A stretch of 57,379 bases of DNA from an uncultured Candidatus Saccharibacteria bacterium (GTDB taxonomy: Bacteria > Patescibacteriota > Minisyncoccia > UBA6257 > 2-01-FULL-56-20): assembly GCA_964361095.1 (NCBI GenBank), contig CAYHZA010000001.1:67456-124834 (forward strand). Reading direction: 5' to 3'. The position numbers and the translations under genes are program-made. Positions 5,297 to 51,150 of this stretch are shown one piece after another. The notes below the pieces were generated by a model, which was not told the DNA's origin, did not search any database, and saw nothing but the letters and a program-made list of their open reading frames with translations. Positions within the stretch are counted from its first letter, which is position 1. Each line of letters begins with the position of its first letter.

Positions 5297-5334
5297 ATGA
5301 AGCGCTATGACGCGTCATAGCATACGCATTCAAC

Positions 5335-6987: not shown

Positions 6988-7082
6988 CCACAGAAACGCG
7001 CACGTGCCAAAACTGTCCCGACCCCGATTTGTCGTGGGTCGAGGATCCGCGATCCCAAAGGGATCGGGACAAAAACCAATGA
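6984..7082 (+). other. decapitated paralog 5' end reading as a 32-codon leader ORF
   Basis: ATG at 6984 overlaps the P3 stop (ATGA) and encodes MTTETRTCQNC, the family N-terminus. It then runs into a 56-bp hairpin insert and stops at TGA 7080-7082, which overlaps the P4 ATG. Confidence 0.6.
7015..7070. repeat. miniature inverted-repeat insert (two hairpins) inside the old P4 5' end
   Basis: It starts GTCCCGA and ends TCGGGAC, an exact 7-bp terminal inverted repeat. Internal hairpin cgatccc-aaa-gggatcg. Confidence 0.55.
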
Positions 7083-8782: not shown

Positions 8783-8791
8783 GAACAAAAC

Positions 8792-8998
8792 ATGCCCGAT
8801 AATCACAAGCCTCCATTACGAAGCGAGGTAAAACCAGGAGTTGCCGTATGGATTATTGAAAAAAAGAACTACGGGACCGATAATTACACGCAGGGGATTG
8901 TAAGGGAAGTGCTTACCTCGAAGGGAGAGCATCCCCGCGGCATCAAGGTACGTCTCACCGATGGCACAGTAGGCCGTGTGCAGTGGCTTGTGGAATAA
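8792..8998 (+). CDS. YwbE-family small protein (DUF2196-like)
   Basis: 68 aa. GTDNYTQGIV.EVLTS...HPRGIKVRL.DG.VGRV matches my recollection of the YwbE family signature. Confidence 0.6.
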   Translation: MPDNHKPPLRSEVKPGVAVWIIEKKNYGTDNYTQGIVREVLTSKGEHPRGIKVRLTDGTVGRVQWLVE

Positions 8999-9003
8999 GA
9001 TTT

Positions 9004-9108
9004 ATGAATAAAGAAACAAAAACACATTCGCAAGGCTCAGTGTCTTCGACTTGTCAAAACTCCGACGTTTCAGTCGGAGCCCCGACCCAAGGGGCGTCGG
9101 GGCTGTAA
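9004..9108 (+). other. decapitated paralog 5' end reading as a 34-codon leader ORF
   Basis: Encodes MNKETKTHSQGSVSSTCQN, very close in protein and DNA to the P6 start MKQETKAHSQDSVSPICQNC. It then enters a hairpin insert and stops at TAA 9106-9108, 10 nt before the P5 ATG. Confidence 0.6.
9060..9103. repeat. miniature inverted-repeat insert (two hairpins) inside the old P5 5' end
   Basis: Hairpins tccgac-gtttca-gtcgga and ccccgac-ccaaggggc-gtcgggg. The ends CTCCGACG / CGTCGGGG are inverted with 7 of 8 matches. Confidence 0.5.
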
Positions 9109-9118
9109 AATAAAAACC

Positions 9119-10891: not shown

Positions 10892-10928
10892 TATTGTTTT
10901 CCGTTCTTCGGGGTGCTATAATTGAGCT

Positions 10929-11153
10929 ATGACCACCGTTACTATTCCGAAAGAATTAACTAAAAAAGGGGATCTCGTTGTAATTCCGAAGAGCGAATAT
11001 GAAGAGTTTTTGAAATTCCGCCGAGCGGTTAGAATTGCGGAACCGACCCGATCAGAAAAACGCGCCATCGAGCGTGGCAGAAAAGAACTGCGGGCAGGGC
11101 GTTTTATTTCTTGGGAAAAGTTAAAAAATGATTTGGCGCGTCGTTCTCGGTAA
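10929..11153 (+). CDS. type II antitoxin (small DNA-binding-type partner of the downstream RelE/ParE toxin)
   Basis: 74-aa ORF overlapping the downstream toxin ORF by 26 nt. The size and position are typical of an antitoxin. The family was not recognised. Confidence 0.55.
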   Translation: MTTVTIPKELTKKGDLVVIPKSEYEEFLKFRRAVRIAEPTRSEKRAIERGRKELRAGRFISWEKLKNDLARRSR

Positions 11154-11385
11154 TCATGCCGAGAAAAAGCTACGGCGTTTCCCTCGCAAAGAAAAACTGC
11201 GTATCGCGGAAACAATTGAGGCATTGCGATCCGCCCCTTTCGCGGGCGACGTGGTGAAGCTCGGGGGTATGGGAAATGCTTGGCGGTTGCGTGTCGGAAA
11301 CTATCGAATTATTTTCGAACTTTTCTCCAAGGAACGGATGCTTTTTATCTCCGAAATTGTGCGGAGAACAAGTGCCACTTATTAA
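11128..11385 (+). CDS. RelE/ParE-family type II toxin
   Basis: 85 aa. The core ...WRLRVGNYRIIFEL...ERMLFISEIVRR is typical of RelE/ParE toxins. Confidence 0.7.
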   Translation: MIWRVVLGNHAEKKLRRFPRKEKLRIAETIEALRSAPFAGDVVKLGGMGNAWRLRVGNYRIIFELFSKERMLFISEIVRRTSATY

Positions 11386-11415
11386 AGCACGAAACGGTCT
11401 GCTCGTTATTCTCTT

Positions 11416-13128
11416 ATGAAGCAAGAAACTAAAGCACATTCGCAAGACTCAGTGTCTCCGATTTGTCAGAACTGCAAAGGGCAATTTGTAATAGACGCTC
11501 AAGATTTTCAATTCTACGAAAAAATAAAGGTCCCGCCGCCCACGTTTTGTCCGCAATGTCGGCTTCAGCGGCGATTAGCACAGAGAAACGAGCGTTCGCT
11601 TTATAAAAGAAATTGCGGTCTCTGCGGGGAAAGTATTATTACAATGTATTCGCCCGACAAGCCGTTTAAGGTGTATTGTCCTGGGTGCTATTACTCCGAT
11701 AAATGGGATCCGAAAGAGTATGAACGCGACTACGATTTTTCACGCTCGTTTTTTGAGCAATTTAAGGAGCTTCAAGACAATATTCCGCACCTCTCGCTTC
11801 TTCAGGAAAATTCGGTCAATAGTCCGTGGATTAATTACGAACTGGACGACAAGAATTGTTATCTTAATTTTGGGGGTCACCTGAACGAAGATTGTGCGTA
11901 TAATCAATATGTTTTGAAATGCCGTGATTGCTTTGATAATTTTTGGATGATGAATGGTCAGTTTGTCTATGAATCTATTCTTTCTGAAAACTGTTATAAA
12001 ACCTTCCATTCGAAATTGTGTTTAGATTGCCGCGATACGTATTTTTCATTCGACTGCCGCAATTGCTCGAATATTTTTGGCTGTTCGGGATTGCGGCATA
12101 AGCAGTACCATATTTTTAATAAACCGGTCTCGAAGGAGGAGTTTGAAAAGTTTATAAAAGAGAATTCATTGGATTCCTATGTAAACATGGAAAAATTCAA
12201 AAACCAAGCCGATGACTTTTGGAAATCCCAGCCTCAGCGAGCCGTGTTTATTGATAAGTCGGTGAACAGTACTGGAAACTTGATCAAGGAATCGAAAAAC
12301 TGCGCTTCATGCTGGAATGCCGAAAGAACAGAAGATTCAAAATATATGGTATTTACACTCCAAGTGAAAGACGCGATGGACACCACTTCGGTATGGGGAG
12401 GGGAGCTTCTGTATGAGTTTATTGCCGGATCCGAGCAGCTTGCGAATATCAGGTTTACGATTGGCGCTCTTCGCGGACCCACTAACTTGGAGTATTGCCG
12501 TTTTATTTTTAATTCTCATAATTGTTTCGGATGCGTGAATATGAGAGATAAAAAGTTTTGTATTTTAAACAAACAATATTCAAAAGAGGAATATACGGAG
12601 CTCCGAGAAAAAATTATTGCCCATATGAATGCAATGCCATACATCGATCGAGCAGGCAGAAATTATCGATATGGTGAGTTTTTTCCGGTTGAACTTTCTT
12701 TGTTTGGCTATAACGAAACAGTAGCAAATGAATATTTCCCGCTTGAACGCGACGAAGTCCTGCGGCAGGGATTTCCGTGGAATGATTACGAGGCGGAGAA
12801 AACTTATCAATTTTCCGATTATAAGATTCCGGATAATATTCGTGACGCCAAAGACGATATTTTGGAAAAAGTTTTGAAATGCGAAATCTCTGGAAAGCCA
12901 TATCGGATAATCCCGATGGAGCTTGCGTTTTACCGCCGGTTTGGTTTGCCGATTCCACGCGCGGCTCCATTTGAACGGCATCGGGGACGTCTGCGGTTTA
13001 TCGCCGATCATTTGAAACTTCGCGATCGAACGTGTGATAAGTGCGGGAAGATAATTCAAAGTGTTTATACAAAAGAGGAATTTCCCCGTGTTTACTGCCA
13101 TGAGTGTTATATCAGCGAAGTAGCATAG
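11416..13128 (+). CDS. Cys-rich multi-zinc-ribbon protein, array paralog P6
   Basis: 570 aa starting MKQETKAHSQDSVSPICQNCKGQFVIDAQDFQFYEKIKVPPPTFCPQCR. Second ribbon CGLC..CPGC is present. Two CF/FGC..(L/M)R.K.. caps. C-terminal CDKCGK...VYCHECYISEVA. Confidence 0.85.
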   Translation: MKQETKAHSQDSVSPICQNCKGQFVIDAQDFQFYEKIKVPPPTFCPQCRLQRRLAQRNERSLYKRNCGLCGESIITMYSPDKPFKVYCPGCYYSDKWDPKEYERDYDFSRSFFEQFKELQDNIPHLSLLQENSVNSPWINYELDDKNCYLNFGGHLNEDCAYNQYVLKCRDCFDNFWMMNGQFVYESILSENCYKTFHSKLCLDCRDTYFSFDCRNCSNIFGCSGLRHKQYHIFNKPVSKEEFEKFIKENSLDSYVNMEKFKNQADDFWKSQPQRAVFIDKSVNSTGNLIKESKNCASCWNAERTEDSKYMVFTLQVKDAMDTTSVWGGELLYEFIAGSEQLANIRFTIGALRGPTNLEYCRFIFNSHNCFGCVNMRDKKFCILNKQYSKEEYTELREKIIAHMNAMPYIDRAGRNYRYGEFFPVELSLFGYNETVANEYFPLERDEVLRQGFPWNDYEAEKTYQFSDYKIPDNIRDAKDDILEKVLKCEISGKPYRIIPMELAFYRRFGLPIPRAAPFERHRGRLRFIADHLKLRDRTCDKCGKIIQSVYTKEEFPRVYCHECYISEVA

Positions 13129-28940: not shown

Positions 28941-29036
28941 GATACATTCGCACTGGTGTGCTCAGTACCTCCTCGCCTTCGCTCGACTGATACATTCGCA
29001 CTGGTGTGCTCAGTACCTCCTCGCCTTCGCTCGTCG
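28941..29036. repeat. interspersed 48-bp element, two tandem copies
   Basis: GATACATTCGCACTGGTGTGCTCAGTACCTCCTCGCCTTCGCTCG(ACT/TCG) occurs twice in tandem. Related copies lie at 38387-38518 and, in reverse complement, at 57311-57379. Confidence 0.85.
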
Positions 29037-38386: not shown

Positions 38387-38518
38387 GCTTCGCTCGTCGG
38401 CACGTTCGCACTGGTGTGCTCCCTGTTTGTCCAAGAGCGAAGCAATTGGCAACAAACAGCAGTCCAGCGAGGCTTTTGCCGAGTCGTGGCTTAGTATCTC
38501 CTCGCCTTCGCTCGTCGG
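38387..38518. repeat. copy of the 48-bp interspersed element split by a ~70-bp hairpin insert
   Basis: CTTCGCTCGTCGGCACGTTCGCACTGGTGTGCTC, then an insert containing the ctgtttg...caaacag stem, then AGTATCTCCTCGCCTTCGCTCGTCGG. Confidence 0.7.
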
Positions 38519-38535
38519 AATAATAGGAATAATAA

Positions 38536-38922: not shown

Positions 38923-38971
38923 TTTTAAAACGCAGGCCCCTTTGTTTTTGCCTAAAACGCTAAAAATTGAT
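38923..38971. repeat. direct repeat DR-left (copy of the tRNA promoter region)
   Basis: TTTTAAAACGCAGGCCCCTTTGTTTTTGCCTAAAACGCTAAAAATTGAT matches 40263-40312 except for 3 substitutions and a 1-nt indel. Confidence 0.85.
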
Positions 38972-40262: not shown

Positions 40263-40312
40263 TTTTAAAAACGTAGGTCCCTTTGTTTTTGCCTAAAACG
40301 CTAAAAGTTGAT
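40263..40312. repeat. direct repeat DR-right (contains the intact tRNA promoter)
   Basis: See 38923-38971. Confidence 0.85.
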
Positions 40313-40317
40313 AGAAT
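40289..40317 (+). promoter_or_regulatory. sigma70 promoter of the tRNA-Gln transcription unit
   Basis: TTGCCT (40289-40294), a 17-nt spacer, then TAGAAT (40312-40317). Confidence 0.6.
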
Positions 40318-40446
40318 AGTGCAGAAATTGCGGGATCGCCCGCCTAGACTCGACGTCTAGTCGAGGCTGGTCTAATGGCCCCGAAACATTCTTCGAATGT
40401 AACGGGGTAAATAGTCCATCGCCCGATGCGAAGTTCTGAACAAAGC

Positions 40447-40517
40447 TGGGGGATCGTCTAATGGTAGGACATCGCCCTCTGGAGGCGAGTATCTTGGTTC
40501 GAATCCAGGTCCCCCAG
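40447..40517 (+). tRNA. tRNA-Gln (anticodon CUG)
   Basis: Folded by hand. Acceptor TGGGGGA/TCCCCCA, D arm GTCT-AATGGTA-GGAC, anticodon arm TCGCC-CTCTGGA-GGCGA (CTG at positions 34-36, T33, G37), variable loop GTAT, T arm CTTGG-TTCGAAT-CCAGG, discriminator G. CCA is not encoded. Confidence 0.85.
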
Positions 40518-40573
40518 CTTTGTTCAGGAAAGGCAGTTGGATTTTGCAACGCGAAGCATTTGCAAAATTAACT

Positions 40574-40607
40574 GTCCCGAGGAGTCTCTCGAGCGACGAG
40601 GGGCTAC
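40574..40607. repeat. member of the GTCCCGAGG-N11-CGACGAGGGGCTAC intergenic repeat family
   Basis: Other members lie at 40693-40726, 42223-42265 (longer spacer) and 41459-41487 (degenerate). Confidence 0.7.
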
Positions 40608-40625
40608 GTTGATATGAGTAGTTAT

Positions 40626-40646
40626 GTTCGAATCCAGGTCCCGCAG
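40626..40646 (+). pseudogene. isolated tRNA 3' fragment (T-loop + acceptor 3' strand)
   Basis: GTTCGAATCCAGGTCCCGCAG shares its first 17 nt with the tRNA-Gln 3' end but has no matching T-stem 5' strand. Its acceptor strand TCCCGCA is complementary to TGCGGGA at 40329-40335. Confidence 0.55.
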
Positions 40647-40888
40647 CCGAACTGAAAATCACCCCGAAGAATTGAGGGGTTGATTTTCGTTCGTCCCGAG
40701 GAGTTTTCCAAGCGACGAGGGGCTACGTCTAACCCCCGAAAGGGGTTTTTGTATTTCAAGCGCTTAGTAAAATTGCAATTTTACTAAGTACAATATTAAA
40801 GATTAATTAAAGCAACCCCGAGGGCTACATTATCGAGGCTTAAATTTTCAATCATCCCGAGGGCCCCGTAATTTGGTATATTTAAGCT

Positions 40889-41167
40889 ATGCCAAAAGAC
40901 CCCAAAGACCTGCGGATCATAACCCAAATAGCCCAGTTCATTCTTCTTGTGCCGGTTATGCTAGTCCTGTTTCTTTTACTATTCACTGGCTATAGTCAAA
41001 TTTTCATCGACCAAGATCGTGACTGTATAATCTATGACCGATTCCCACCGGAAGCTGAAAGAAAAGCGGCGATTGAGGCATTTCAACGAAATACCGTCGA
41101 GGGGTTAGTAAAAATTGACGAGATTATTGCTAAATACCCGCCGATCATAAAGTGCCCGAAATTATAA
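40889..41167 (+). CDS. small single-pass membrane protein, copy A
   Basis: 92 aa with a TM helix IAQFILLVPVMLVLFLLLF. A duplicate lies at 45570..45848. Confidence 0.6.
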   Translation: MPKDPKDLRIITQIAQFILLVPVMLVLFLLLFTGYSQIFIDQDRDCIIYDRFPPEAERKAAIEAFQRNTVEGLVKIDEIIAKYPPIIKCPKL

Positions 41168-41293
41168 CTGGAATCTGCAACGAACCCATCTGTTCGCTAA
41201 TTTTTCTCCAATTTACAGTTCCAAGTGTTCCGAGGCGTTTTGCGCCGAGGGGCTATTTTGATTTATTCCCCGTAACGTTCAGTTTTCTGCCAG

Positions 41294-41322
41294 TGGAATT
41301 TTATTAAAAAACGTGGTATAAT
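41294..41322 (+). promoter_or_regulatory. promoter cassette copy L1 (extended -10)
   Basis: TGGAAT, 17 nt, then TATAAT preceded by TGG. It is embedded in the conserved string CCAGTGGAATTTTATTAAAAAACGTGGTATAAT. Confidence 0.6.
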
Positions 41323-41595
41323 GTACACGAAATAAAATTCTCAGGCCTCACAGCCGATTAGATTTTCTTAGCGAAGTATGAGCTTAGAAAATCAATCGTC
41401 CCGAACGAATGTGAGGGATACAGTGCATGCCGAGCTTGTGAGGTTTGAATTTTCAATCATCCCGAGGAGGGTAGAGCCGACGAGGGACTTCCTCGTGATA
41501 GGCCATTCGGCTCTGAGAGCCTCAGGCTCGATGAGTTATCCTGCTCGAGACGCATTGATTAACAAAATTTTCAAAAGGGATATAATGAAACCGTT

Positions 41596-42177
41596 ATGAC
41601 CAAATACATTCTCCATGGCGGATATACCAGCACAAACAATGAACTAAATCGTACTTTCTACGAGGAAATCGGTCGTGATGTTCCGGATAAAGGCACGATT
41701 TTACTCTGCTACTTTGCTTCACAAGATGAAGACAATTCGAACAGGTTTAAGGAAGACAGCGAAAGAGTCCAAAAGCAATCTCACGGTAAAGACTTCACAT
41801 TTCTCCTCGCTAACGAGAAAGATTTCCTCGATCAACTAAAGCAAGCCGATGTTCTCTATATGCGCGGAGGTAGTACTCCAAAGCTTCTCGGAATATTGAA
41901 AAAGTACAATGATTTTAAAGAGAATCTGGATGGCAAAACAGTTGCTGGATCTTCTGCGGGGGCGTATGTGATTGGACATTATAGCGCTTTTCATGACGAC
42001 GAATCAGGCGGGAAGGTACGTGAAGGGCTTGGCCTCCTACCATTACGAGTTGTTTGTCACTACGAGAGCTCAGACTTACCTCCAAACCCACAAGCACTCT
42101 CTTCTTTAAAAAATATGGCGCAAGAACTTGATCTTGTGCTACTCAAGGACTTTGAATGGAAGGTTTTTAAGATATAG
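41596..42177 (+). CDS. peptidase S51 (dipeptidase E-like) / type-1 glutamine-amidotransferase-like protein
   Basis: 193 aa. ...ADVLYMRGGSTPKLL... and GSSAGAYV form a nucleophile elbow typical of S51. Confidence 0.6.
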   Translation: MTKYILHGGYTSTNNELNRTFYEEIGRDVPDKGTILLCYFASQDEDNSNRFKEDSERVQKQSHGKDFTFLLANEKDFLDQLKQADVLYMRGGSTPKLLGILKKYNDFKENLDGKTVAGSSAGAYVIGHYSAFHDDESGGKVREGLGLLPLRVVCHYESSDLPPNPQALSSLKNMAQELDLVLLKDFEWKVFKI

Positions 42178-42399
42178 ATTTGAGTACTGGGTGCTCGAGA
42201 CGAATCGTTTTGGTTTCGAGCGGTCCCGAGTGAATCCGCCGGTTGGCGGACGACGAGGGGCCTACATTATCCCTGCTTACACCGCTGGTGGAATTTTACC
42301 AAAAAACATTGTTATACTTCCTTTAGAACCTATAGAGCTTACAAATTAAGGAGGTGGATAGTAGATATCCTCGATCAGGAAACCGGACGCGAGCAGCTC

Positions 42400-42816
42400 G
42401 TGCGGTACGGGAGAACTCTTGCGGGCGCATTCCTCTGTGCCTTGGGATGGGTTTCTGCGTATCTTTTCTTCTATCACGGCGTTGCAAACAACACGTTTCT
42501 CGTCGCACCTCTTGTGCTCGCCTTCATAAGCTTCCTGCTCCTCGGAACCGTTGTCCCGAGAAAGCCGTGGGGGCTTCTCATGGACCTCGCATTTGCCACG
42601 CTCCACGCTTGTTTTATAACGCTTTTCGTTTCGATCGTGCGGCATCCCCAGAAACGCGTCCTCCATGGTATTCGTGATATATGGAAGCTCCCCCCGCTTG
42701 ACCAAGCCCTGCTTTTCTCTGCTTTGGTGTGCTTGGTGGTCTCCATGCTTCTCATGCTTGCGGACACACTGACCTACAAGCCGGAAGAAAATAACAACAG
42801 CCACGGCACAGCCTGA
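42400..42816 (+). CDS. integral membrane protein (hypothetical)
   Basis: 138 aa with about 4 hydrophobic helices. GTG start as in the ORF track, but the start is uncertain. A perfect 10-bp-stem terminator follows on the plus strand. Confidence 0.45.
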   Translation: MRYGRTLAGAFLCALGWVSAYLFFYHGVANNTFLVAPLVLAFISFLLLGTVVPRKPWGLLMDLAFATLHACFITLFVSIVRHPQKRVLHGIRDIWKLPPLDQALLFSALVCLVVSMLLMLADTLTYKPEENNNSHGTA

Positions 42817-42829
42817 TGTGCCGAACCAC

Positions 42830-42862
42830 AAGGAGGCACCGCGGTGCCTCCTTAATATTTTA
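42830..42862 (+). terminator. rho-independent terminator
   Basis: Hairpin aaggaggcac-cgcg-gtgcctcctt followed by an A/T-rich tail, aatatttta. Confidence 0.6.
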
Positions 42863-42901
42863 TGGGTCTGTGATTTTGTGACATTTACTCGCTTGGCATC
42901 G

Positions 42902-42930
42902 TTGAATTTCCGTAAAAAACGTGGTATAAT
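42902..42930 (+). promoter_or_regulatory. promoter cassette copy L2
   Basis: TTGAAT, 17 nt, then TATAAT with an upstream TGG. It shares AAAAAACGTGGTATAATGTA..CGAAATAAAA with L1. Confidence 0.6.
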
Positions 42931-42948
42931 GTATGCGAAATAAAAACT

Positions 42949-43494
42949 ATGACAATCTATGTATTTATAGACGCTTCAAATGTTTGGAATGCGATCAAGT
43001 CGGTAAAAAAGTTCATTGAATACAAAACTCTTAAAGATTATTTTAGAAAAAAATTTAACGCAGGCAAGGTTGAAATTTTTTATTATGATGCTTACCCAAA
43101 AGCAGGAACAAGAGATTATGACTTGGATGGAAAGCATAGATTTTTTACGTATCTTAAGAAAGGGCTCGGTTTTACTGTAAGAAAAAAAGAATTAAAAAGA
43201 ATCTCTGTTATTGGCGAGAGTGGAGAATCTATCGTAGAAAAAGGAAATATGGATGTGGAAATAACGATTGATGCTATGCACAACATCCAGAAATATAACG
43301 TAGCTATCTTTTTTAGCGGCGATGCTGATTTTTTAGCGCTCGTGAATTATTTGAAAAATGCCGGCAAAAAGGTCTACATTTTTTCTTCAAAAGGTAATAT
43401 TTCTCACGAACTAAAAACTGGCGGGGATGGTTATTATGAGTTAAAAGATATAAATGAATTTTGGGGTAAAGATTTAAAACATCGCGAGAAATAA
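42949..43494 (+). CDS. NYN-domain (LabA/DUF88-like, PIN-fold) putative RNase
   Basis: 181 aa. IYVFIDASNVW..., GNMDVEITIDAM and FFSGDADFLALVNYLKNAGKKVYIFS carry the NYN acidic residues. Confidence 0.75.
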   Translation: MTIYVFIDASNVWNAIKSVKKFIEYKTLKDYFRKKFNAGKVEIFYYDAYPKAGTRDYDLDGKHRFFTYLKKGLGFTVRKKELKRISVIGESGESIVEKGNMDVEITIDAMHNIQKYNVAIFFSGDADFLALVNYLKNAGKKVYIFSSKGNISHELKTGGDGYYELKDINEFWGKDLKHREK

Positions 43495-43666
43495 ATAATA
43501 CATAAACGAAAACCACCCTCAATTAAGAGAGTGGCCCTGGGATGTATAACCCTAACGGTTCTATGGATAGAACCGAAAGACCTTATTAGTATATGCGAGC
43601 CGTCGCATAAGTCAATAGTTATCCACAAGCAATATTGAACCCCCGAAAGGGGTTTTCGCATTTCAA
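43235..43666 (+). repeat. 432-bp segmental duplication, copy A (NYN 3' half + downstream tail)
   Basis: Near-identical to 45101-45532 at a constant offset of 1866 bp. Confidence 0.9.
43638..43656 (+). terminator. short rho-independent terminator recurring at cassette ends
   Basis: Hairpin aacccc-cgaaa-ggggtt plus TT. Copies lie at 40731-40750 and 45504-45522, and each is followed by ..ATTTCAA. Confidence 0.45.
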
Positions 43667-43742
43667 GCGTGCAGAAACACTTGTGTTTTGCGCCGAAGGG
43701 CTATTTTGATTTACCCCCCCGTGACGTTTAATTCCCTACCAG

Positions 43743-43771
43743 TGGAATTTTATTAAAAAACGTGGTATAAT
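43743..43771 (+). promoter_or_regulatory. promoter cassette copy L3
   Basis: Carries the same CCAGTGGAATTTTATTAAAAAACGTGGTATAAT string as L1 and L4. Confidence 0.6.
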
Positions 43772-43925
43772 ATACAAAAAGTTCGACTCTCGGGTCCAAT
43801 ACGATTAGCGAACTTTTGAAATAAATTTATGAATAAGAAATCATCAAATAAATGGGATCAGTGTTTAATCGACAAACGAGATTTGGCTAATAAAATCCTT
43901 GCTCAAATGAAAAGAATATAAAAAT

Positions 43926-44747
43926 ATGGATATAACTTTTTACAATATTTATGAAAAATCCTCAGAGATTTTTAACGGGCATACCATTAACCTAAAAAAG
44001 TGTGGTTGGTGCGATCCGTGGACGATGGGCTTGGTTTGCCTTAAAGCAATTGAATATAAGGATAGCCCTGATAAAAAGCTCATACTTCCGGACGATCAGG
44101 ATGTCGTTGCTTACTTGAAGCGCATGCACCTCGATTGGTTTTTAGAAGAACTGACATATCACGAGTTCCTCAAGCTGTTGGCGGAAAAAGCGATAGTTGA
44201 GAGAGAAAATTTGAACATTCACGAAATTATGCACTGCCAATTTCGCGATGATTTCGGAGCGCGGCTGTCATCGAGAATTAGGATGATGTTTAGAAACTTT
44301 GGTATGAATGCAGATGATGAGAGTAGGGCGACGGCATTGGTCGGAGAGTTAGGGAACAATGTTTTTGATCACAACGAGGGAGCGTGGCCTACAAATGTGC
44401 GTGGTGCAATTATCTTGGGTCAGCACAATCCAAAGAAAAAACAGATTGAAGTTGTAGTCGCAGATCCAGGAATAGGTTTTCGTGGTTCATTGAAAGTGTT
44501 AGATCCGTCTCTTACGAGCGACATAGAAGCAATTAAGCTTGGTCTTAGCGGTGTAACAGGAAGAGTTGATGAGCGTCGTGGTAATGGGTTAAGAGTGATT
44601 CAGGACTGGACAATCAATAAGTTTGATGGTATTGTAAAAATCCATTCGGGAAGCGGTTTAGTTGTTGTAGACAAGGATGGCCAGAAGCCACAAACCGTTT
44701 TTCCTGTCATAGGAACTTTAGCTTCATTCGTGGTAAGATATAAATAA
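43926..44747 (+). CDS. GHKL-superfamily (SpoIIAB/RsbW-like HATPase_c) ATP-binding protein with a unique N-terminal domain
   Basis: 273 aa with N-box ELGNNVFDH, G1 box ADPGIGF and G2 box RRGNGL. The N-terminal ~130 aa has no recognisable motif. Confidence 0.7.
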   Translation: MDITFYNIYEKSSEIFNGHTINLKKCGWCDPWTMGLVCLKAIEYKDSPDKKLILPDDQDVVAYLKRMHLDWFLEELTYHEFLKLLAEKAIVERENLNIHEIMHCQFRDDFGARLSSRIRMMFRNFGMNADDESRATALVGELGNNVFDHNEGAWPTNVRGAIILGQHNPKKKQIEVVVADPGIGFRGSLKVLDPSLTSDIEAIKLGLSGVTGRVDERRGNGLRVIQDWTINKFDGIVKIHSGSGLVVVDKDGQKPQTVFPVIGTLASFVVRYK

Positions 44748-44761
44748 CTTTAGCCACCTCT

Positions 44762-45028
44762 ATGGTCATACAAATATCCAAATTTAACAGTGTTTTGAAC
44801 GGGAGGCCTGCTGCAAAGGAGGCTGCTTTGCGTATCCAGCAGATTGTTAATGGATCGGCGGAAAAAGAAGATGTTGTATTGGACTTCTCCGGTGTTGAAG
44901 TTTTAACCCCGTCTTATGCGGACGAGTTATTAAAAGCGTTGAAAGACAAGTATGGCTCGGAAAAAGTTAAGATTGTGAATACTGCTCCGTCTGTATCGGA
45001 AACGATACACGCGATTAGCAATACCTAA
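44762..45028 (+). CDS. STAS-like (DUF4325) small protein
   Basis: 88 aa. ...VVLDFSGVEVLTPSYADELL is the typical DUF4325/STAS-like core. It starts 14 nt after the ATPase gene. Confidence 0.65.
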   Translation: MVIQISKFNSVLNGRPAAKEAALRIQQIVNGSAEKEDVVLDFSGVEVLTPSYADELLKALKDKYGSEKVKIVNTAPSVSETIHAISNT

Positions 45029-45100
45029 ACTCTTAAGTTCTTAGCGACTTGGGGTGTATTTCAAGCGTGCAGAGACACTTGTGTTTTTTGCGTACCTTCA

Positions 45101-45360
45101 TAGAAAAAGGGAATATGGATGTGGAAATAACGATTGATGCGATGCACAACATCCAGAAATATAACGCAGCCATCTTTTTTAGTGGCGATGCTGATTTTCT
45201 GGCGCTCGTGAATTATTTGAAAAATGCCGGCAAAAAGGTCTACATTTTTTCTTCAAAAGGTAATATTTCTCACGAACTAAAAACTGGCGGGGATGGTTAT
45301 TATGAGTTAAAAGATATAAATGAATTTTGGGGTAAAGATTTAAAACATCGCGAGAAATAA
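45101..45360 (+). pseudogene. 5'-truncated duplicate of the NYN gene
   Basis: Encodes only the C-terminal ~85 aa (EKGNMDVEITIDAM...KHREK) of 42949..43494, with one V-to-A change. The N-terminal catalytic half is missing. Confidence 0.8.
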
Positions 45361-45569
45361 ATAATACATAAACGAAAACCACCCTCAATTAAGAGAGTGG
45401 CCCTGGGATGTATAACCCTAACGGTTCTATGGATAGAACCGAAAGACCTTATTAGTATATGCGAGCCGTCGCATAAGTCAATAGTTATCCACAAGCAACA
45501 TTGAACCCTCGAAAGGGGTTTTCACATTTCAATCATCCCGAGGGCCCCGTAATTTGGTATATTTAAGCT

Positions 45570-45848
45570 ATGCCAAAAGACCCCAAAGACCTGCGGATCA
45601 TAACCCAAATAGCCCAGTTCATTCTTCTTGTGCCGGTTATGCTAGTCCTGTTTCTTTTACTATTCACTGGCTATAGTCAAATTTTCATCGACCAAGATCG
45701 TGACTGTATAATCTATGACCGATTCCCACCGGAAGCTGAAAGAAAAGCGGCGATTGAGGCATTTCAACGAAATACCGTCGAGGGGTTAGTAAAAATTGAC
45801 GAGATTATTGCTAAATACCCGCCGATCATAAAGTGCCCGAAATCATAA
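45570..45848 (+). CDS. small single-pass membrane protein, copy B
   Basis: 92 aa, identical to copy A except for the last residue (S instead of L). Confidence 0.6.
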   Translation: MPKDPKDLRIITQIAQFILLVPVMLVLFLLLFTGYSQIFIDQDRDCIIYDRFPPEAERKAAIEAFQRNTVEGLVKIDEIIAKYPPIIKCPKS

Positions 45849-45974
45849 CCGGAATCTGCAACGAACCCATCTGTTCGCTAATTTTTCTCCAATTTACAGT
45901 TCTAAGTGTTCCGAGGCGTTTTGCGCCGAAGGGCTATTTTGATTTATCCTCCGTGACGTTTAGTTTTCTACCAG

Positions 45975-46003
45975 TGGAATTTTATTAAAAAACGTGGTAT
46001 AAT
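45975..46003 (+). promoter_or_regulatory. promoter cassette copy L4
   Basis: Same string as L1 and L3. The leader up to the ATG at 46061 is collinear with the L3 leader. Confidence 0.6.
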
Positions 46004-46060
46004 ATACAAAAAGTTTGATTCTCGAGCCCCATACAATTAGTGAGCTTTTGAAATAAATTT

Positions 46061-49000
46061 ATGGAAAACATTTTTGAAAAATACATTCACTCTATTTCCT
46101 CTAAATTCTCTCACGAAGAGACAAGTGAAATGGGGTATCGAACAGATTTTGAAATTCTCCTAAAGGGCATTTTTGAATCAATCAATGTTAGGCGCATCGA
46201 TCATGACGCGAGGGCGAAGCAAGGAAATAAACCCGATTTTGTCGTGCTTAATCACGATGTGCCGATTTTGTATATTGAGGCGAAAGATATCGGCGTATCT
46301 TTAGATAAAGTTGAGAAGTCGGAACAGATGGCCAGATATTACGGGTATGCAAATTTAGTTCTTACAGACTATGTAGAATTTCGTTTTTATAGAAACGGTC
46401 TTCATTATGAAGATCCGATAAAAATAGCGAATTACGATACAAAGAATCGAACGATTGCACCTATTCCGGAAAATTATGAGCATGTTGCTAAAACACTCAT
46501 TGATTTCGCACAATCACACAAAGAACCGATACGGTCAGGAAAACACCTTGCAAAAATTATGGGAGGAAAGGCTCAAAGAATCCGAGATAATGCGCGACAA
46601 TTTCTTGCCACAGAATCAGACAAAAATTCCGAACTCGTCAGAATATATGAGACAATCAAGAAACTTCTTGTCCACGATCTAACACACGAATCCTTTGCAG
46701 ATATGTACGCACAGACGCTCGTTTATGGTCTTTTTATCGCTCGTTATTATGATAATACAGAAAAAGATTTTTCACGTCGGGAAGCAATTGATCTTATTCC
46801 GGCTTCAAATCCATTTTTGGGACATTTTTTTGACCACATTGCTGGGCGAAATTTTGAGAAACGGCTCGGGTATATTGTGGATGAACTGTGTGAGGTTTTT
46901 TCTCACGCTAATGTTCAAGAACTCATGCAGGAGTATTTCAAGGATGATTTATGGGGTAAAACTCATATGGGCCCAGATCCAGTAATTCATTTCTATGAAG
47001 ATTTTTTGAAAGAATATGACGATGTCTTGCGTAAAAAAATGGGTGCTTACTATACGCCCCTACCTGTGGTGCAGTTTATTGTGCGTTCCGTTGATCATCT
47101 ACTTGAAAAAGAATTCGGGCTTGTAGCCGGTTTAGCCGACACTTCAAAGACAGCGGCTGGTGTCCATCGTGTCCAAATTCTTGATCCGGCTGTAGGTACG
47201 GGTACATTCATAAGCGATGTTATAGGGAAAATCTACACACGAATAAAGAAAGGTGGACAGGAAGGCCGTTGGCCAGCATATGTGCATAATGATTTGTTAC
47301 CACGACTGCATGGTTTTGAACTTATGATGGCACCGTATACGATAGCTCATCTAAAATTAAGTATGGCGTTTAAGAAAACGGGTTTTTGGAATTTCCATCG
47401 CCGGCTTGGCATTTATCTTACAAACTCTCTCGAAGAAAGCGTCACCCAGAAAGGCTTGTTTAGTGGTTTTGGCTTTGCCGAAAGTATTGCCGAGGAATCC
47501 AAAGAAGCATCAGTTATAAAGAACAAAACGCCGATTATGGTTGTTATCGGCAATCCGCCGTATAGCGTTAGTTCTTCAAATAAAGGTGAGTGGATACAAA
47601 ATCTTATCAAGGACTACAAGAAAGGCCTTGGCGAGCGCAAGATCAACCTCGATGATGACTACATAAAATTCATCCGCTTCGCCGAACACTTTATAGAAAA
47701 AAACGGAAGTGGTATCGTGGCGATGATTACGAACAACTCATTCATAGACGGCATTACCCATCGCCAGATGAGAAGGCATCTGCTTGAGACATTTGATGAC
47801 ATTTATATTCTTGACCTCCACGGTAGTTCCAAGAAGAAAGAAAAGGCGCCGGACGGAGGCAAGGATGAGAATGTGTTTGATATTCAACAGGGCGTTTCCA
47901 TTTCCATATTCATGCGCAAAACAGGCGAGAAAAAAGGCCTTGGCGCTGTTCATCACGCCGAGTTATATGGTAAGAGAGAGGATAAATTCAGGGTACTTAA
48001 CGAAAACGGTATGCAAAATGTTAATTGGGAAAAGCTCAATTACTCCGAGCCGTATTATTTCTTTGTGCCAAAAGATTTTGGATCGGAAGAAGAATATAAA
48101 AAAGGATTCAAAATTGATGAGCTTTTCCCGCACTGTAATTCGGGAATTCAGACAAAACGTGATGATATAGTAATTCAATTTACTGCAGAAGAAATCGAAA
48201 AAGTTACTAATGATTTTCAGAATTTTACAGAACATCAAATACGAGAAAAATATCAATTACCAGAAGATGGGCGAGATTGGAAAATAAAATGGGCTCAAGA
48301 TGACTTAAGAAAGAACTTTAGTATAGAACCAATTCAGTATCGTCCTTTTGATGTCCGCTATACCGCATATACCGGGAATTCAAAAGGTTTTATAGCTTAT
48401 CCGAGAGAAAAAACCAATGTGAATATAGTTAATAAAGAAAATATCGCTTTGCTTTCTAGTCGTACTATTCCAGCAAATCAATCATTTGATAGATCCCTCA
48501 TAACTAAAAATATTGCAGATATTCATGCCGCAAGTGATCAGACATATGTTTTCCCACTTTGGATTTATGAGAAAGGGAAAATGGGTGCATCGGGGACTAT
48601 TGAATTTGAACGACAGCCAAACCTTCAATTGTCTATTGCAAGAAAAATAGCAGAATGTGTGGGGATGGATTATTATCCAATCGCAGAACATGAGACTATT
48701 CCGATAGACAAGCGTCTTATTCCCGAAGATATTTTTGATTATATCTATGCCGTTTTATACTCGCCGAGCTATCGTGAAAAATATAAGGAATTTCTAAAAA
48801 TTGATTTCCCGTGTGTGCCGTACCCTAAAGACGCAAAAAGTTTCAAACAACTTGTCGCGCTTGGCGCCGAACTGTGTTCACTCCACCTTCTCGAATCACT
48901 AAAGGTAAATCAATTCATCACGACATACCCTGTTGCTGGATCAAATATCGTCGAGAAGCCAATCTACAAAGATGGCAAGGTGTTTATTAATAAAAACCAG

Positions 49001-49183
49001 TATTTCGGCAATACTCCCGAGTTAGCATGGAATTTTTACATCGGCGGTTACCAGCCCGCCCAAAAGTGGCTCAAAGACCGCAAAGACCGTACCCTTACCA
49101 ACACCGACATTGAGCATTATCAAAAAATTATTGTGGCGATAGTGGAAACGGAGAGAATCATGAGAGAAATAGATAAATGTTGA
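46061..49183 (+). CDS. fused type IIG / ISP-like restriction-modification enzyme (N-terminal PD-ExK nuclease, gamma-class N6-adenine MTase, C-terminal specificity domain)
   Basis: 1040 aa. PDFVV...ILYIEAKD (D...ExK), motif I ILDPAVGTGTF, motif IV GNPPYS. C-terminal IFDYIYAVLYSPSYREKYKEFLKIDFPCVPYP and GGYQPAQKWLKDRK. Confidence 0.8.
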   Translation: MENIFEKYIHSISSKFSHEETSEMGYRTDFEILLKGIFESINVRRIDHDARAKQGNKPDFVVLNHDVPILYIEAKDIGVSLDKVEKSEQMARYYGYANLVLTDYVEFRFYRNGLHYEDPIKIANYDTKNRTIAPIPENYEHVAKTLIDFAQSHKEPIRSGKHLAKIMGGKAQRIRDNARQFLATESDKNSELVRIYETIKKLLVHDLTHESFADMYAQTLVYGLFIARYYDNTEKDFSRREAIDLIPASNPFLGHFFDHIAGRNFEKRLGYIVDELCEVFSHANVQELMQEYFKDDLWGKTHMGPDPVIHFYEDFLKEYDDVLRKKMGAYYTPLPVVQFIVRSVDHLLEKEFGLVAGLADTSKTAAGVHRVQILDPAVGTGTFISDVIGKIYTRIKKGGQEGRWPAYVHNDLLPRLHGFELMMAPYTIAHLKLSMAFKKTGFWNFHRRLGIYLTNSLEESVTQKGLFSGFGFAESIAEESKEASVIKNKTPIMVVIGNPPYSVSSSNKGEWIQNLIKDYKKGLGERKINLDDDYIKFIRFAEHFIEKNGSGIVAMITNNSFIDGITHRQMRRHLLETFDDIYILDLHGSSKKKEKAPDGGKDENVFDIQQGVSISIFMRKTGEKKGLGAVHHAELYGKREDKFRVLNENGMQNVNWEKLNYSEPYYFFVPKDFGSEEEYKKGFKIDELFPHCNSGIQTKRDDIVIQFTAEEIEKVTNDFQNFTEHQIREKYQLPEDGRDWKIKWAQDDLRKNFSIEPIQYRPFDVRYTAYTGNSKGFIAYPREKTNVNIVNKENIALLSSRTIPANQSFDRSLITKNIADIHAASDQTYVFPLWIYEKGKMGASGTIEFERQPNLQLSIARKIAECVGMDYYPIAEHETIPIDKRLIPEDIFDYIYAVLYSPSYREKYKEFLKIDFPCVPYPKDAKSFKQLVALGAELCSLHLLESLKVNQFITTYPVAGSNIVEKPIYKDGKVFINKNQYFGNTPELAWNFYIGGYQPAQKWLKDRKDRTLTNTDIEHYQKIIVAIVETERIMREIDKC

Positions 49184-49206: not shown

Positions 49207-49557
49207 ATGAGTAATTATCCTAGAGGTTCAGAATGGAAAAAGTGGGATTTGCATGTTCACAGCCCTGCTTCACGTGGTTTTAGTGGGACATGGGATCAAT
49301 TTGAAACGCAGTTGAAAAACGGAGATTGTGAAGTCATAGGTATAAATGACTATTTTTCTGTTGCAGGATATAAAAAAATTAAGGAAAAAATTTCAGCGGG
49401 GACTTTAGATATTGGCGACAAGAAAATATTGCCCGTTGTTGAATTTAGAATGCGGGATGTTTTAAAAAACAGACAAACTGGTACTAGCGGTACTAATATA
49501 AATTTTCATGTAACCAGGGTTCAGAAGTTTTATAATTTCAAAAAGATTGCCACATAG
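49207..49557 (+). pseudogene. truncated PHP-domain N-terminus of a PHP + ATPase (TrlF-like) gene
   Basis: 116 aa. GSEWKKWDLHVHSPAS, IGINDY, LPVVEFR and NINFHV follow the PHP pattern. The frame then ends abruptly where full-length relatives continue for several hundred residues. Confidence 0.55.
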
Positions 49558-50700: not shown

Positions 50701-50718
50701 CAGCCGTTTCATGACAAT

Positions 50719-50746
50719 ATTCCAACATTCTGCAGAATGTTGGAAT
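50719..50746. promoter_or_regulatory. perfect 28-bp palindrome, candidate ArsR-type operator
   Basis: ATTCCAACATTCTG|CAGAATGTTGGAAT, just upstream of a TGATATGAT extended -10 and the regulator's ATG at 50790. Confidence 0.6.
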
Positions 50747-50789: not shown

Positions 50790-51056
50790 ATGAAAACTTC
50801 GAAACAATTGGAGCGATACTTTAAGGGAGCGGCGAATCACCGGCGCATTAGTATTTTATGTGCAGTGGCAGCGCGCGAAGGGATTACCGTCGAGGAGATC
50901 GCCACAACGCTCAATGCGAATTTTAAAACCATCTCCCAGCATACCAAGTCGCTTGTGCAAGCGGGCTTGATGAATAAAACATATCAAGGCCGGCAAGTTA
51001 CCCATGCGCTTTCTCCCTACGGCAGATCCTTCTTTCGTTTCATGAAAATATTCTAA
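50790..51056 (+). CDS. ArsR/SmtB-family winged-helix transcriptional regulator
   Basis: 88 aa. ...ANHRRISILCAV......VEEIA..L......ISQHTK.L..AGL is a typical ArsR HTH. Confidence 0.7.
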   Translation: MKTSKQLERYFKGAANHRRISILCAVAAREGITVEEIATTLNANFKTISQHTKSLVQAGLMNKTYQGRQVTHALSPYGRSFFRFMKIF

Positions 51057-51080
51057 CATTCTGCAGAATGTTAGAATATT
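51047..51080. promoter_or_regulatory. perfect 34-bp palindrome, second candidate operator
   Basis: AATATTCTAACATTCTG|CAGAATGTTAGAATATT overlaps the regulator's stop codon. It lies ~45 nt upstream of a GATATACT -10 for 51151..51360 and differs from the first palindrome by one symmetric position. Confidence 0.6.
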
Positions 51081-51150
51081 TATAAGTAACGTGAGTAGCG
51101 CAGGATGGTTTGATATACTGAAGGTATATACCCCCCGCGGATAAATCTCG

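Follow-up and report, generated by a model that had tools for sequence, protein, structure and literature searches.

Repeated promoter and hairpin modules as possible portable homology in a tRNA-linked accessory island of a candidate phyla radiation bacterium

Introduction

The question raised by the locus described here is how a series of unrelated accessory genes came to stand behind copies of one promoter and leader in the chromosome of a bacterium of the candidate phyla radiation (CPR). The locus occupies 40.5 to 46 kb of a 57,379-nucleotide stretch of contig CAYHZA010000001.1 (hereafter the window, to which all positions refer unless another contig is named), and the best reading of it is as the section nearest the tRNA in a variable accessory island, which carries defence and toxin-antitoxin genes and lies downstream of a tRNA-Gln(CTG) gene. 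Genomes of the CPR bacteria, or Patescibacteria, are tiny and contain few mobile elements that can be recognised, although these bacteria must exchange defence genes continually. An original prediction held that the genes of this locus are shuffled as promoter-equipped cassettes by an integron-like exchange at a short ATTTCAA junction. Our analysis leads to a different mechanism, namely that the mosaic was probably made by homologous and some illegitimate recombination between the repeated regulatory modules themselves, with no dedicated recombinase required, and we hold this view with moderate confidence.

The comparison spanned about 74 kb of one genome, i.e., the window together with 10 kb upstream (contig L022) and 6.6 kb downstream (contig L027). 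Replicate contigs of 104 to 170 kb came from 0.1-µm-filtered groundwater of well H51 of the Hainich Critical Zone Exploratory (ENA ERZ1292623, ERZ1292627 and others), and all of the contigs compared are short-read metagenome assemblies.

Results

Repeated promoter blocks before unrelated genes

It was found that five co-oriented copies of a block of 90 to 150 bp, here called the L block, lie within 41.2 to 46.0 kb, and that there are none in the other ~69 kb examined. The block consists of a G-A-bracketed hairpin (described below) with a U-rich tail and a promoter, with or without a hairpin in the 5' untranslated region (5'-UTR). Because it begins with a copy of the G-A hairpin and then a U-rich tract, the L block appears to be a composite of a terminator-like and a promoter unit; judged from their sequences, the modules would have terminator and promoter activity. 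The predicted promoter, TGGAAT-17-TGGTATAAT, is of the sigma-70 type, with a TATAAT −10 hexamer, a TG extension and an A-tract in the spacer. Three exact copies of the 30-nt promoter core GTGGAATTTTATTAAAAAACGTGGTATAAT were found, compared to none in 100 shuffles, and the 16-nt core AAAAACGTGGTATAAT has four copies, every one in the island. Four cassettes carry such a predicted extended −10 promoter. The promoter block, the upstream block, the terminator-like (T) hairpin and the full hairpin element were all absent from the other 52 kb of the window, from the 10 kb further upstream and from the 6.6 kb further downstream.

The blocks L1, L3 and L4 are 88 to 92% identical to each other, and the two further copies have diverged. 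In a self-BLAST comparison, L3 (43685 to 43831) aligned with L4 (45918 to 46063) at 90.5%, the alignment ending exactly at both ATG codons, whereas L1 (41237 to 41327) matched L3 at 88% and 45 nt of L2 (42901 to 42945) matched at 87%. As a feature, L3 runs from 43685 to 43828 and comprises the 3' half of a hairpin, the promoter (−10 at 43766 to 43771) and the 5'-UTR hairpin, up to the ATG at 43829; this 5'-UTR hairpin is common to L3 and L4, with a more distant likeness in L1. The −10 hexamers of L1 and L4 are at 41317 to 41322 and 45998 to 46003, in the repeats R1 and R2, respectively (see below). The short block L2 (42901 to 42948) carries TTGAAT-17-TATAAT with TG. The fifth copy, the diverged block L2' (42223 to 42318), has a G-A hairpin at 42223 to 42262 (fold z = −2.8) and a promoter, GTGGAATTTTACCAAAAAACATTGTTATACT, at 42288 to 42318 before an open reading frame (ORF) for a 138-residue membrane protein.

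The copies and −10 coordinates of the original prediction were thus recovered, and a fifth copy was added, but the position of one of its blocks needs correction: L1 is located 270 nt 5' of the ATG of the S51 peptidase gene and not immediately upstream. The long spacer after L1 (41328 to 41595) contains a UTR hairpin homologous to those of L3 and L4, two G-A hairpins (41398 to 41419 and 41460 to 41488, separated by AATTTTCAATCA) and the peptidase gene's own proximal promoter-like site, TTAACA-16-TATAAT (41559 to 41586). Overall, the self-BLAST alignments and the core counts support the claim that unrelated cargo genes lie behind copies of one promoter and leader.

The leader was not found with relatives of the cargo. 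A GHKL-type ATPase gene and a STAS-like DUF4325 gene in the island form a two-gene module that is widespread in Patescibacteria (198 matches), and its homologues with 76 to 79% amino-acid identity lie within a type I restriction-modification (R-M) operon (contig L014) or near a serine recombinase (contig L015). Nucleotide similarity to these homologues is limited to 43905/43922 to 45028, with the leader and the junctions excluded. In the same way, the sole relative found of a 92-residue membrane protein encoded in the island is the product of an 80%-identical gene of another, low-coverage organism from the same well, which has a different upstream region and context, and the similarity is lost at ~41221/45905, where the L block starts. 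The absence of leader similarity from both sets of homologues bears out the view that the leader is a property of the island and not of the cargo, and by these comparisons the cargo is shown to be of foreign origin and to have arrived without the leader.

Two duplications and their joints

Two large direct duplications were delimited by self-BLAST. The first, R1 (40846 to 41327), recurs as R2 (45527 to 46008) over 482 bp at 97.9% identity, with 10 mismatches, and the second, at 43232 to 43666, recurs at 45098 to 45532 over 435 bp at 97.5%; the limits previously proposed (40846 to 41325 with 45527 to 46006, and 43235 to 43666 with 45101 to 45532) were confirmed apart from these small adjustments. 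R1 is composed of the linker TTTCAA, a hairpin 5' half TCATCCCGAGG, the gene for the 92-residue protein, a G-A hairpin at 41227 to 41253 and promoter L1; R2 has the second 92-residue-protein gene, a G-A hairpin at 45908 to 45934 and promoter L4. The first 435-bp copy contains the 3' half of a NYN nuclease gene, a 172-nt tail and the T2 hairpin with ATTTCAA, and the second contains a truncated NYN gene, the tail and the T3 hairpin with ATTTCAA. Both the duplications and the block copies greatly exceed what chance would give, and neither occurs elsewhere in the ~74 kb of the same genome.

A 30-nt direct repeat, ATTTCAAGCGTGCAGAAACACTTGTGTTTT, lies to the left of the GHKL cassette (43660 to 43689), and its second copy is followed by an aborted L block (GTGTTTTTTGCG, 45079 to 45097), the two together occupying 45058 to 45097. 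The aborted block is joined to the middle of the NYN gene, so that the left end of the NYN repeat truncates the gene, and to judge by its sequence this end is an illegitimate join. The idea that the break points coincide with ATTTCAA held only in part. TTTCAA is present at just three of the eight duplication ends (40846, 43666 and 45527/45532), whereas the other five lack the motif, with ends 41327/46008 inside the L block and ends 43232/45098 inside the NYN coding sequence.

In the replicate assemblies, the same gene order was seen in no fewer than five contigs of more than 50 kb. At the joints 45087|45098 and 45526|45527, the two sequences that meet have no k-mer-length homology, and for want of such an overlap reads must span the joints. 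Since, in addition, the copies differ by 2 to 2.5% and have unique flanks, the duplications are not a product of the assembler.

The mismatches of each large repeat are grouped towards one or both of its ends and leave a core of ~300 bp that is identical. The block L4 follows L1 on its 5' side (92-residue-protein gene and hairpin) and L3 from the −10 to the ATG, with L1-like and L3-like sites interleaved between the hairpin and the −35; by this pattern of sites, L4 is a hybrid patchwork of L1 and L3, as would be expected from homologous exchange inside the block. The self-BLAST alignments, the mismatch pattern and the hybrid L4 together support the earlier claim that the repeats mark recombination joints. 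Furthermore, the NYN repeat copy 1 of the replicate contig L002 has four extra single-nucleotide polymorphisms (SNPs) at sites where copy 1 of the window equals copy 2 (paralogous SNPs are at 43358, 43386, 43422 and 43428), and a 685-bp contig from a 0.2-µm sample joins 45526 to 40846 and runs, with R1-type variants, into the S51 leader. This 45526|40846 junction is possibly that expected of a circle or tandem copy resulting from an R1 × R2 exchange. Signs of composition and decay are also present, in that the guanine-plus-cytosine (GC) content is heterogeneous and two genes (NYN and a PHP-type ATPase) are truncated; ComEC and type IV pilus genes provide a context for uptake and recombination.

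Hairpins and the conserved linker

The spacers were found to be a mosaic of four co-oriented kinds of module, namely the G-A hairpin, a terminator-like hairpin with a TTTCAA(TCA) linker, the promoter and the 5'-UTR hairpin, and all of these lie on the + strand. The G-A hairpin (TCCCGA...GAGGG[G/A]C) has an outer stem, (G/A)TCCC / GGG(G/A)C, with G-A dinucleotides on both sides, and its inner stems differ completely among copies (GTC/GAC, GGCG/CGCC, TCCGCC/GGCGGA) although each remains self-complementary. The full copies begin at 40574, 40693, 41227, 42223 and 45908, and shorter or half copies are at 40661, 40815, 40852, 41398, 41460, 43694 and 45533; the hairpin string recorded in the original prediction, TCATCCCGAGG, is the 5' half of this element. 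We count about nine to eleven full or half copies in 40.5 to 46 kb, and outside it one partial copy (54834) in the 74 kb. The stems need G-U pairs and work only on the + strand, which points to RNA or to a single DNA strand. By eye, copies A (40574 to 40609; GTCCC-GAG-GA-GTC...GAC-GA-GGGGC-TACGT) and B (40693 to 40728) appear to match the K-turn consensus (C-stem, 3-nt bulge, tandem G-A, NC-stem). The hairpin matched no Rfam family, the tRNA being the only Rfam match, and sub-threshold matches to GA-cis, SorY and SpF41 were rejected (E>2).

The terminator-like hairpin AACCCCCGAAAGGGGTT followed by TTT-N-G-N-ATTTCAA is present at 40731, 43638 and 45504; the first of these (T1), with its TTTGTATTTCAA linker, occupies 40731 to 40759. 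At 40846 and 41451 the string is ATTTTCAA. The bare 7-mer ATTTCAA shows no enrichment in the window (26 copies against 24.8 expected) and is significant only as part of longer shared modules. It belongs to a longer conserved linker between two hairpins, TTTCAATCATCCCGAG, and this 16-mer is identical at three window sites and in a relative's genome, L019.

The tRNA-Gln anchor and a related genome

The island is anchored by tRNA-Gln(CTG) at 40447 to 40518 on the + strand (ARAGORN; Rfam, 59 bits). At 129 nt downstream of this intact gene there is an orphan 3' fragment of a second-type tRNA-Gln (40616 to 40647, + strand; acceptor TCCCGCA), which includes a 22-nt repeat of the tRNA 3' end (40626 to 40647) with one mismatch, where none is expected by chance. 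From its sequence the fragment looks like an att-type remnant. The island has both a tRNA-adjacent insertion and a direct repeat of the tRNA 3' end, and no integrase gene was found at the tRNA-proximal end in the window by Pfam scans and precomputed annotations. Between T1 and R1, a perfect AT-rich 26-bp palindrome (40763 to 40788) is followed by TACA, and a homologous palindrome is at the same relative place in L019.

Upstream of tRNA-Gln, two copies of a 49-bp direct repeat of the tRNA promoter region, 92% identical and both on the + strand, lie at 38923 to 38971 and at 40264 to 40312, the second together with a promoter-like TTGCCT-17-TAGAAT (feature limits 40264 to 40317). They flank a 1.3-kb insert with a HicB-like ORF (assigned by eye, with no Pfam match), an ORF of 127 residues and a SocA/Panacea-domain antitoxin gene (Pfam SocA_Panacea); the segment 38923 to 40312 is probably a PanA-type toxin-antitoxin pair.

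A 1.3-kb contig from a 0.2-µm sample (L003) has a tRNA-Leu/Lys/Leu array directly 5' of tRNA-Gln (L003 positions 1 to 426) and, from tRNA-Gln onwards as far as 41403, matches the window at 99.9% identity. The tRNA-Gln of this contig has a difference at base 3 (TGCGGGA) and would pair with the orphan 3' fragment at 40626 to 40647. The 12-mer ATTGCGGGATCG also occurs in the window at 40331 to 40342, 105 nt upstream of tRNA-Gln. L003 may represent a strain variant, a chimera or another copy in the genome, and it suggests earlier integration events in tRNA-Gln.

In the related genome L019 (GCA_004196275.1), a core gene is 76.5% identical in DNA to that of the window's genome. L019 has its own tRNA-Gln(CTG), followed by GTCCCGAGAATTTGAGGGAC, AGAATTTCAATCA and TCCCGAG...CGAGGGGCTACAC, then by the AT-rich palindrome with TACA and by further hairpins; four or five G-A hairpin copies lie downstream of this tRNA-Gln, and the repeated hairpin is seen at L019 2682 to 2739. 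The cargo after the hairpins is defence-like (DUF6884, DUF4365 and a 1042-residue PHP/SMC-type ATPase), and a 149-bp direct repeat surrounds an inserted MS-channel gene. The pattern of repeat, cargo and repeat is thus found four times in the lineage, with repeats of 49, 482 and 435 bp in the window and of 149 bp in L019.

Searches of other collections gave little. A degenerate promoter core had one match in GTDB species representatives, inside a Bacteroidales gene, and four in JGI metagenomes, of which two were ordinary promoters with a similar spacer and none had the upstream block. The viral collections contained no match to the promoter core or the upstream block, and BLASTN of 40500 to 46100 against GenBank phages and PLSDB plasmids gave no match. 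The four viral matches to TTTCAATCATCCCGAG (three in coding sequence and one in the hok-type toxin leader of an enterobacterial element) were close to chance expectation, a rough estimate with an assumed collection size, and were rejected as unrelated. A phage or prophage origin was likewise rejected, on the grounds of the cellular core genes in the flanks and the lack of a match in viral collections.

Genes of the island and its surroundings

Downstream of tRNA-Gln, all of the island genes are on the + strand. The first is the 92-residue membrane-protein gene (40889 to 41167, inside R1), followed by a gene for a 193-residue Peptidase_S51 family protein (41596 to 42177; Pfam E=1.5e-11), the GC-rich gene of the 138-residue membrane protein (42400 to 42816, with a terminator-like palindrome downstream at 42830 to 42853) and that of a 181-residue NYN/LabA-like nuclease (42949 to 43494; Pfam E=2e-20; PADLOC NYN). 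The GHKL cassette (43829 to 45028) comprises a 30-residue ORF, the GHKL-type ATPase gene (43926 to 44747) and the STAS-like DUF4325 gene (44762 to 45028), a pair that resembles an RsbW/RsbV-type module. The truncated NYN gene (an 81-residue ORF, 45115 to 45360) is inside the second 435-bp repeat copy, and the second 92-residue-protein gene (45570 to 45848) is inside R2. The stretch 46009 to 49183 contains the L4 5'-UTR, common to L3, and the gene of a 1040-residue type IIG R-M enzyme (Pfam Type_ISP_C, E=7.6e-82; PADLOC REase_MTase_IIG, E=3.8e-281). It is followed by a truncated N-terminal fragment of a large PHP-type ATPase gene (49207 to 49557), a 116-residue ORF with 33% identity (E=1e-18) to residues 1 to 109 of the 1042-residue protein that is intact in L019; by this alignment it is probably a remnant of a truncated defence gene.

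The long-contig homologue of the GHKL-DUF4325 pair that is closest to the window lies in L014 (91 to 9105), at the end of an operon of hsdR, hsdM, hsdS and DUF4357, a context that links the RsbW/RsbV-like pair to restriction systems. Both proteins of the pair weakly match the N-terminus of the PADLOC DrmA profile.

A candidate antisense small RNA lies on the − strand in the NYN tail (43500 to 43615), with a duplicate at 45366 to 45481. Its features are a promoter-like TTGACT-16-TATACT, a pair of strong hairpins (fold z = −3.9) and a T-run. The candidate is convergent with NYN, its T-run finishes a few bases from the NYN stop codon, and it is kept beside the truncated NYN copy; it may serve NYN as a regulatory RNA or in the manner of an antitoxin.

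It was also observed that −10-like hexamers lie just 7 to 9 nt before the ATG codons of the 92-residue-protein and S51 genes (40873 to 40891 and 41581 to 41598), and that the L2 to L4 leaders have no Shine-Dalgarno sequence, the 138-residue-protein gene, with AAGGAGG nearby, being the exception. These close hexamers and leaders suggest leaderless or Shine-Dalgarno-independent translation.

The GC content is 0.34 to 0.40 over most of 43 to 50 kb, relative to 0.44 to 0.53 in the core, which agrees with the earlier remark that the region is richer in AT than the flanking core, save for the GC-rich gene at 42 to 43 kb. The flanks contain genes for a tRNA m1G methyltransferase, leucyl aminopeptidase, ComEC, a P-type ATPase, GreA, a DNA polymerase III subunit, a UvrD/PD-(D/E)XK helicase, and the type IV pilus ATPase and platform proteins. 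Because these are ordinary cellular genes, the locus is chromosomal in a CPR bacterium; the closest named relatives by protein are metagenome-assembled genomes of Patescibacteria/Paceibacterota.

Elsewhere in the window, a tandem family of six paralogous genes (1791 to 13128) encodes proteins of ~550 to 610 residues with Cys-rich N-terminal (CxxC) and C-terminal motifs, and the single member tested had no Pfam match. Tandem repeats of 45 nt, GATACATTCGCACTGGTGTGCTCAGTACCTCCTCGCCTTCGCTCG, are present at 28941 to 29033 and 38388 to 38520; their copy number varies among assemblies, the window and contig L001 differing by 88 nt at 38464 to 38518. Near-identical perfect palindromes of 30 to 36 bp (ATATTCCAACATTCTGCAGAATGTTGGAAT), at 50711 to 50746 and 51046 to 51081, bracket a small ArsR/HTH_5-type regulator gene and are likely its operators. 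A palindrome resembling ATATTCCAACATTCTGCAGAATGTTGGAAT is also present at the start of L019.

Discussion

We propose that, because the modules are repeated, they may act as portable homology. General (RecA-type) recombination between them would duplicate segments in the form of repeat, cargo and repeat, would yield hybrid leaders and would bring one promoter and 5'-UTR to stand before ORFs that are unrelated and were acquired horizontally, after which the promoter would drive whatever sits downstream. The events could be unequal exchange or the excision and re-insertion of circles, with at least one illegitimate join; both this recombination pathway and a continuing exchange or mobility are things that we infer. 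The strand bias of the hairpins, the locality and orientation of the modules, the leader that is not borne by the cargo and the hybrid L4 all count in favour of recombination between modules. So do the inner stems that vary among copies without loss of pairing, the grouped mismatches, the recurrence of repeat, cargo and repeat, the uneven composition with its two truncated genes, and the presence of ComEC and pilus genes where no recombinase family was found in the window ORFs and flanks scanned.

Several points weigh against this proposal. Short-read assembly of repeats could account for the SNP pattern, for the 685-bp contig and for the identical cores of the repeats, and each of these is suggestive only. 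We found no strain or close relative whose cargo differed at these joints, the five large contigs all having the same order; when synteny was followed through the flank with the FAD-oxidoreductase gene, relatives at 76 to 80% identity differed in gene order, synteny being lost in those at ~79% amino-acid identity, and only L019 was informative. Since the promoter searches gave chance matches only, the GTDB-representative and JGI collections scanned contain neither this genome nor its L block. The linker TTTCAATCATCCCGAG is identical in two genomes despite 76.5% identity in core-gene DNA, a constraint that simple homology leaves unexplained, and the tRNA fragment points to past integrase activity. 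The strict conservation of TTTCAATCATCCCGAG beside tRNA-Gln and the tRNA fragments are thus two points for which plain homology does not account.

Of the other explanations, a static, decaying island survives best, although we think it rather unlikely. The repeats would then be scars of two one-off segmental duplications and of older promoter duplications, with no exchange of cargo. The identical arrangement in all large contigs from replicate samples fits this, as do the decay indicated by the truncated NYN and PHP-ATPase genes and the position of L1, which no longer lies directly before a gene. It does not sit well with five leader copies before unrelated genes of differing GC, with a cargo pair that is common to distant Patescibacteria without the leader, or with the hybrid L4; moreover, the variation seen at paralogous sites and the contig with the 45526|40846 junction suggest that exchange is still going on.

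Site-specific accretion would be a less probable history, and a doubtful one. A recombinase encoded elsewhere, or on incoming circles or phages, would use hairpin-TTTCAA-TCATCCCGAG by tRNA-Gln as an att-like site, would add cassettes successively, like an integron or a tRNA-island integrase, and would leave copies of the site between cassettes. A tRNA gene borders the island, and an orphan 3' piece of a tRNA follows 129 nt beyond it; three window sites share an identical TTTCAATCATCCCGAG with the region beside the tRNA-Gln(CTG) of L019 despite the divergence of the core; differing left and right arms are combined around TTTCAA; and the hairpins favour one strand, like folded single-stranded sites. 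Against this, the expected attL-type combination (GAGG..TTTCAA then GCG...) is never seen, and what flanks the GHKL cassette is the 30-nt repeat and not the hairpin site. The motif is missing from five of the eight duplication ends, one of which truncates a gene. As the original prediction had noted for the window, no recombinase is visible: Pfam scans and precomputed annotations revealed no member of the integrase, resolvase or DDE transposase families among the main window ORFs or the called genes of the 17-kb flanks. By eye, with no attC-detection program used, the hairpins have no attC-type R''/R' cores or AAC/GTT. The integron-like exchange at ATTTCAA is not upheld by these results, and an integron was rejected as an explanation because no integrase was found in the window ORFs and flanks scanned, no attC structure was seen by eye, and most breakpoints are off the motif.

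The conservation of TTTCAATCATCCCGAG and the tRNA fragments nevertheless keep a site-specific component alive as a minority reading. In its boldest form, which is a long shot, the G-A hairpin and TTTCAATCATCCCGAG downstream of tRNA-Gln(CTG) would be the landing site of an undescribed cassette-accretion system, in which a trans-encoded or unrecognised recombinase captures one-gene circles carrying a promoter and leader. If this were true, CPR bacteria would possess a promoter-bearing, integron-like platform for gene capture.

An assembly artefact, from strain-variant merging or mis-resolved repeats, is very improbable: the data are short-read metagenome contigs, one contig (L002) ends within the second repeat, the island is present in a pair of contigs from a single assembly and bubble popping could produce perfectly identical repeat cores, but copies that differ by 2 to 2.5% each have unique flanks, the joints lack the k-mer-length overlap that would spare reads from spanning them, and independent replicate assemblies agree on the order.

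As it stands, the scope of our preferred explanation, recombination between regulatory modules, is one locus in one population. If terminator-promoter modules are portable homology, new genes would be assured of expression on arrival, a principle described for T4 phages (see below) would extend to cellular genomes, and there would be a recombinase-free account of defence-island assembly in the CPR. The L block and the hairpin-linker could also serve as tags for variable islands and new defence cargo in CPR metagenomes.

By analogy, the closest counterparts of the locus are best read as the promoter-early stem-loops (PeSLs) of T4 phages and the NIME and REP2 repeats of Neisseria, not integrons. 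The island shares with integrons the unidirectional arrays of unrelated cassettes, the strand-biased, hairpin-forming repeats between them and the apparent addition of new material next to a fixed anchor. It differs from them in that no IntI was found in the main window ORFs and 17-kb flanks and no attI/attC architecture (RYYYAAC...GTTRRRY) was seen by eye; in addition, the cassettes have their own predicted promoters, whereas integron cassettes are mostly promoterless, and the duplications are hundreds of bp long with ends mostly off the putative core. With tRNA-linked defence islands it has in common the adjacent tRNA gene, the duplicated tRNA 3' end, the atypical base composition and a cargo of R-M, nuclease and toxin-antitoxin genes with gene remnants. 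Unlike such islands, it has no integrase gene that we could find, and repeated promoter and hairpin modules dominate rather than att repeats.

Repeats of the REP, BIME and NIME type are short, structured and dispersed genome-wide in intergenic regions, the REPs with a RAYT transposase; in the comparison with REP/RAYT elements no Y1 transposase was seen at our locus. The REP2 promoter repeats of Neisseria place transcription signals in front of unrelated genes. Neisseria NIMEs (dRS3 + RS) are intergenic arrays of short repeats that promote exchange at adjacent loci, Correia elements are repeats that carry transcription signals before unrelated genes, and minimal mobile elements (MMEs) are whole-gene cassettes incorporated solely by homologous recombination in a naturally competent host (PMC3898611). 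The Neisseria repeats and those of our locus both form intergenic arrays of short modules. The organisms and sequences are unrelated, the Neisseria repeats have hundreds of copies genome-wide in contrast to one island within the 74 kb seen here, and the homology on which MMEs rely comes from conserved flanking genes and not from regulatory repeats.

The PeSLs of T4-type phages are motifs of ~100 bp with a stem-loop/terminator and a strong sigma-70 promoter, repeated in hyperplastic regions just upstream of ORFans (Arbiol et al. 2010, PMC2839356; Comeau et al. 2014, PMC4122927). It has been proposed that homologous recombination between PeSL copies, by way of mini-circles, removes, adds and reorders genes that carry expression signals of their own (PMC2839356, PMC4122927). 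The mechanism that we propose for the island is the same. The L block is located in a cellular CPR chromosome beside a tRNA gene and not in a T4-type phage, its sequence is unrelated, with a G-A-bracketed hairpin in place of the polyG/polyC stem of PeSLs, and its five copies, known from sequence alone, are at one locus. It shares with PeSLs a repeated composite of ~100 bp consisting of a stem-loop and a (here predicted) sigma-70-like promoter, and in both cases the copies are concentrated in a plastic region upstream of unrelated accessory ORFs, L1 with its 270 nt to the S51 gene being the exception. In both, the conservation may run as far as the start codon.

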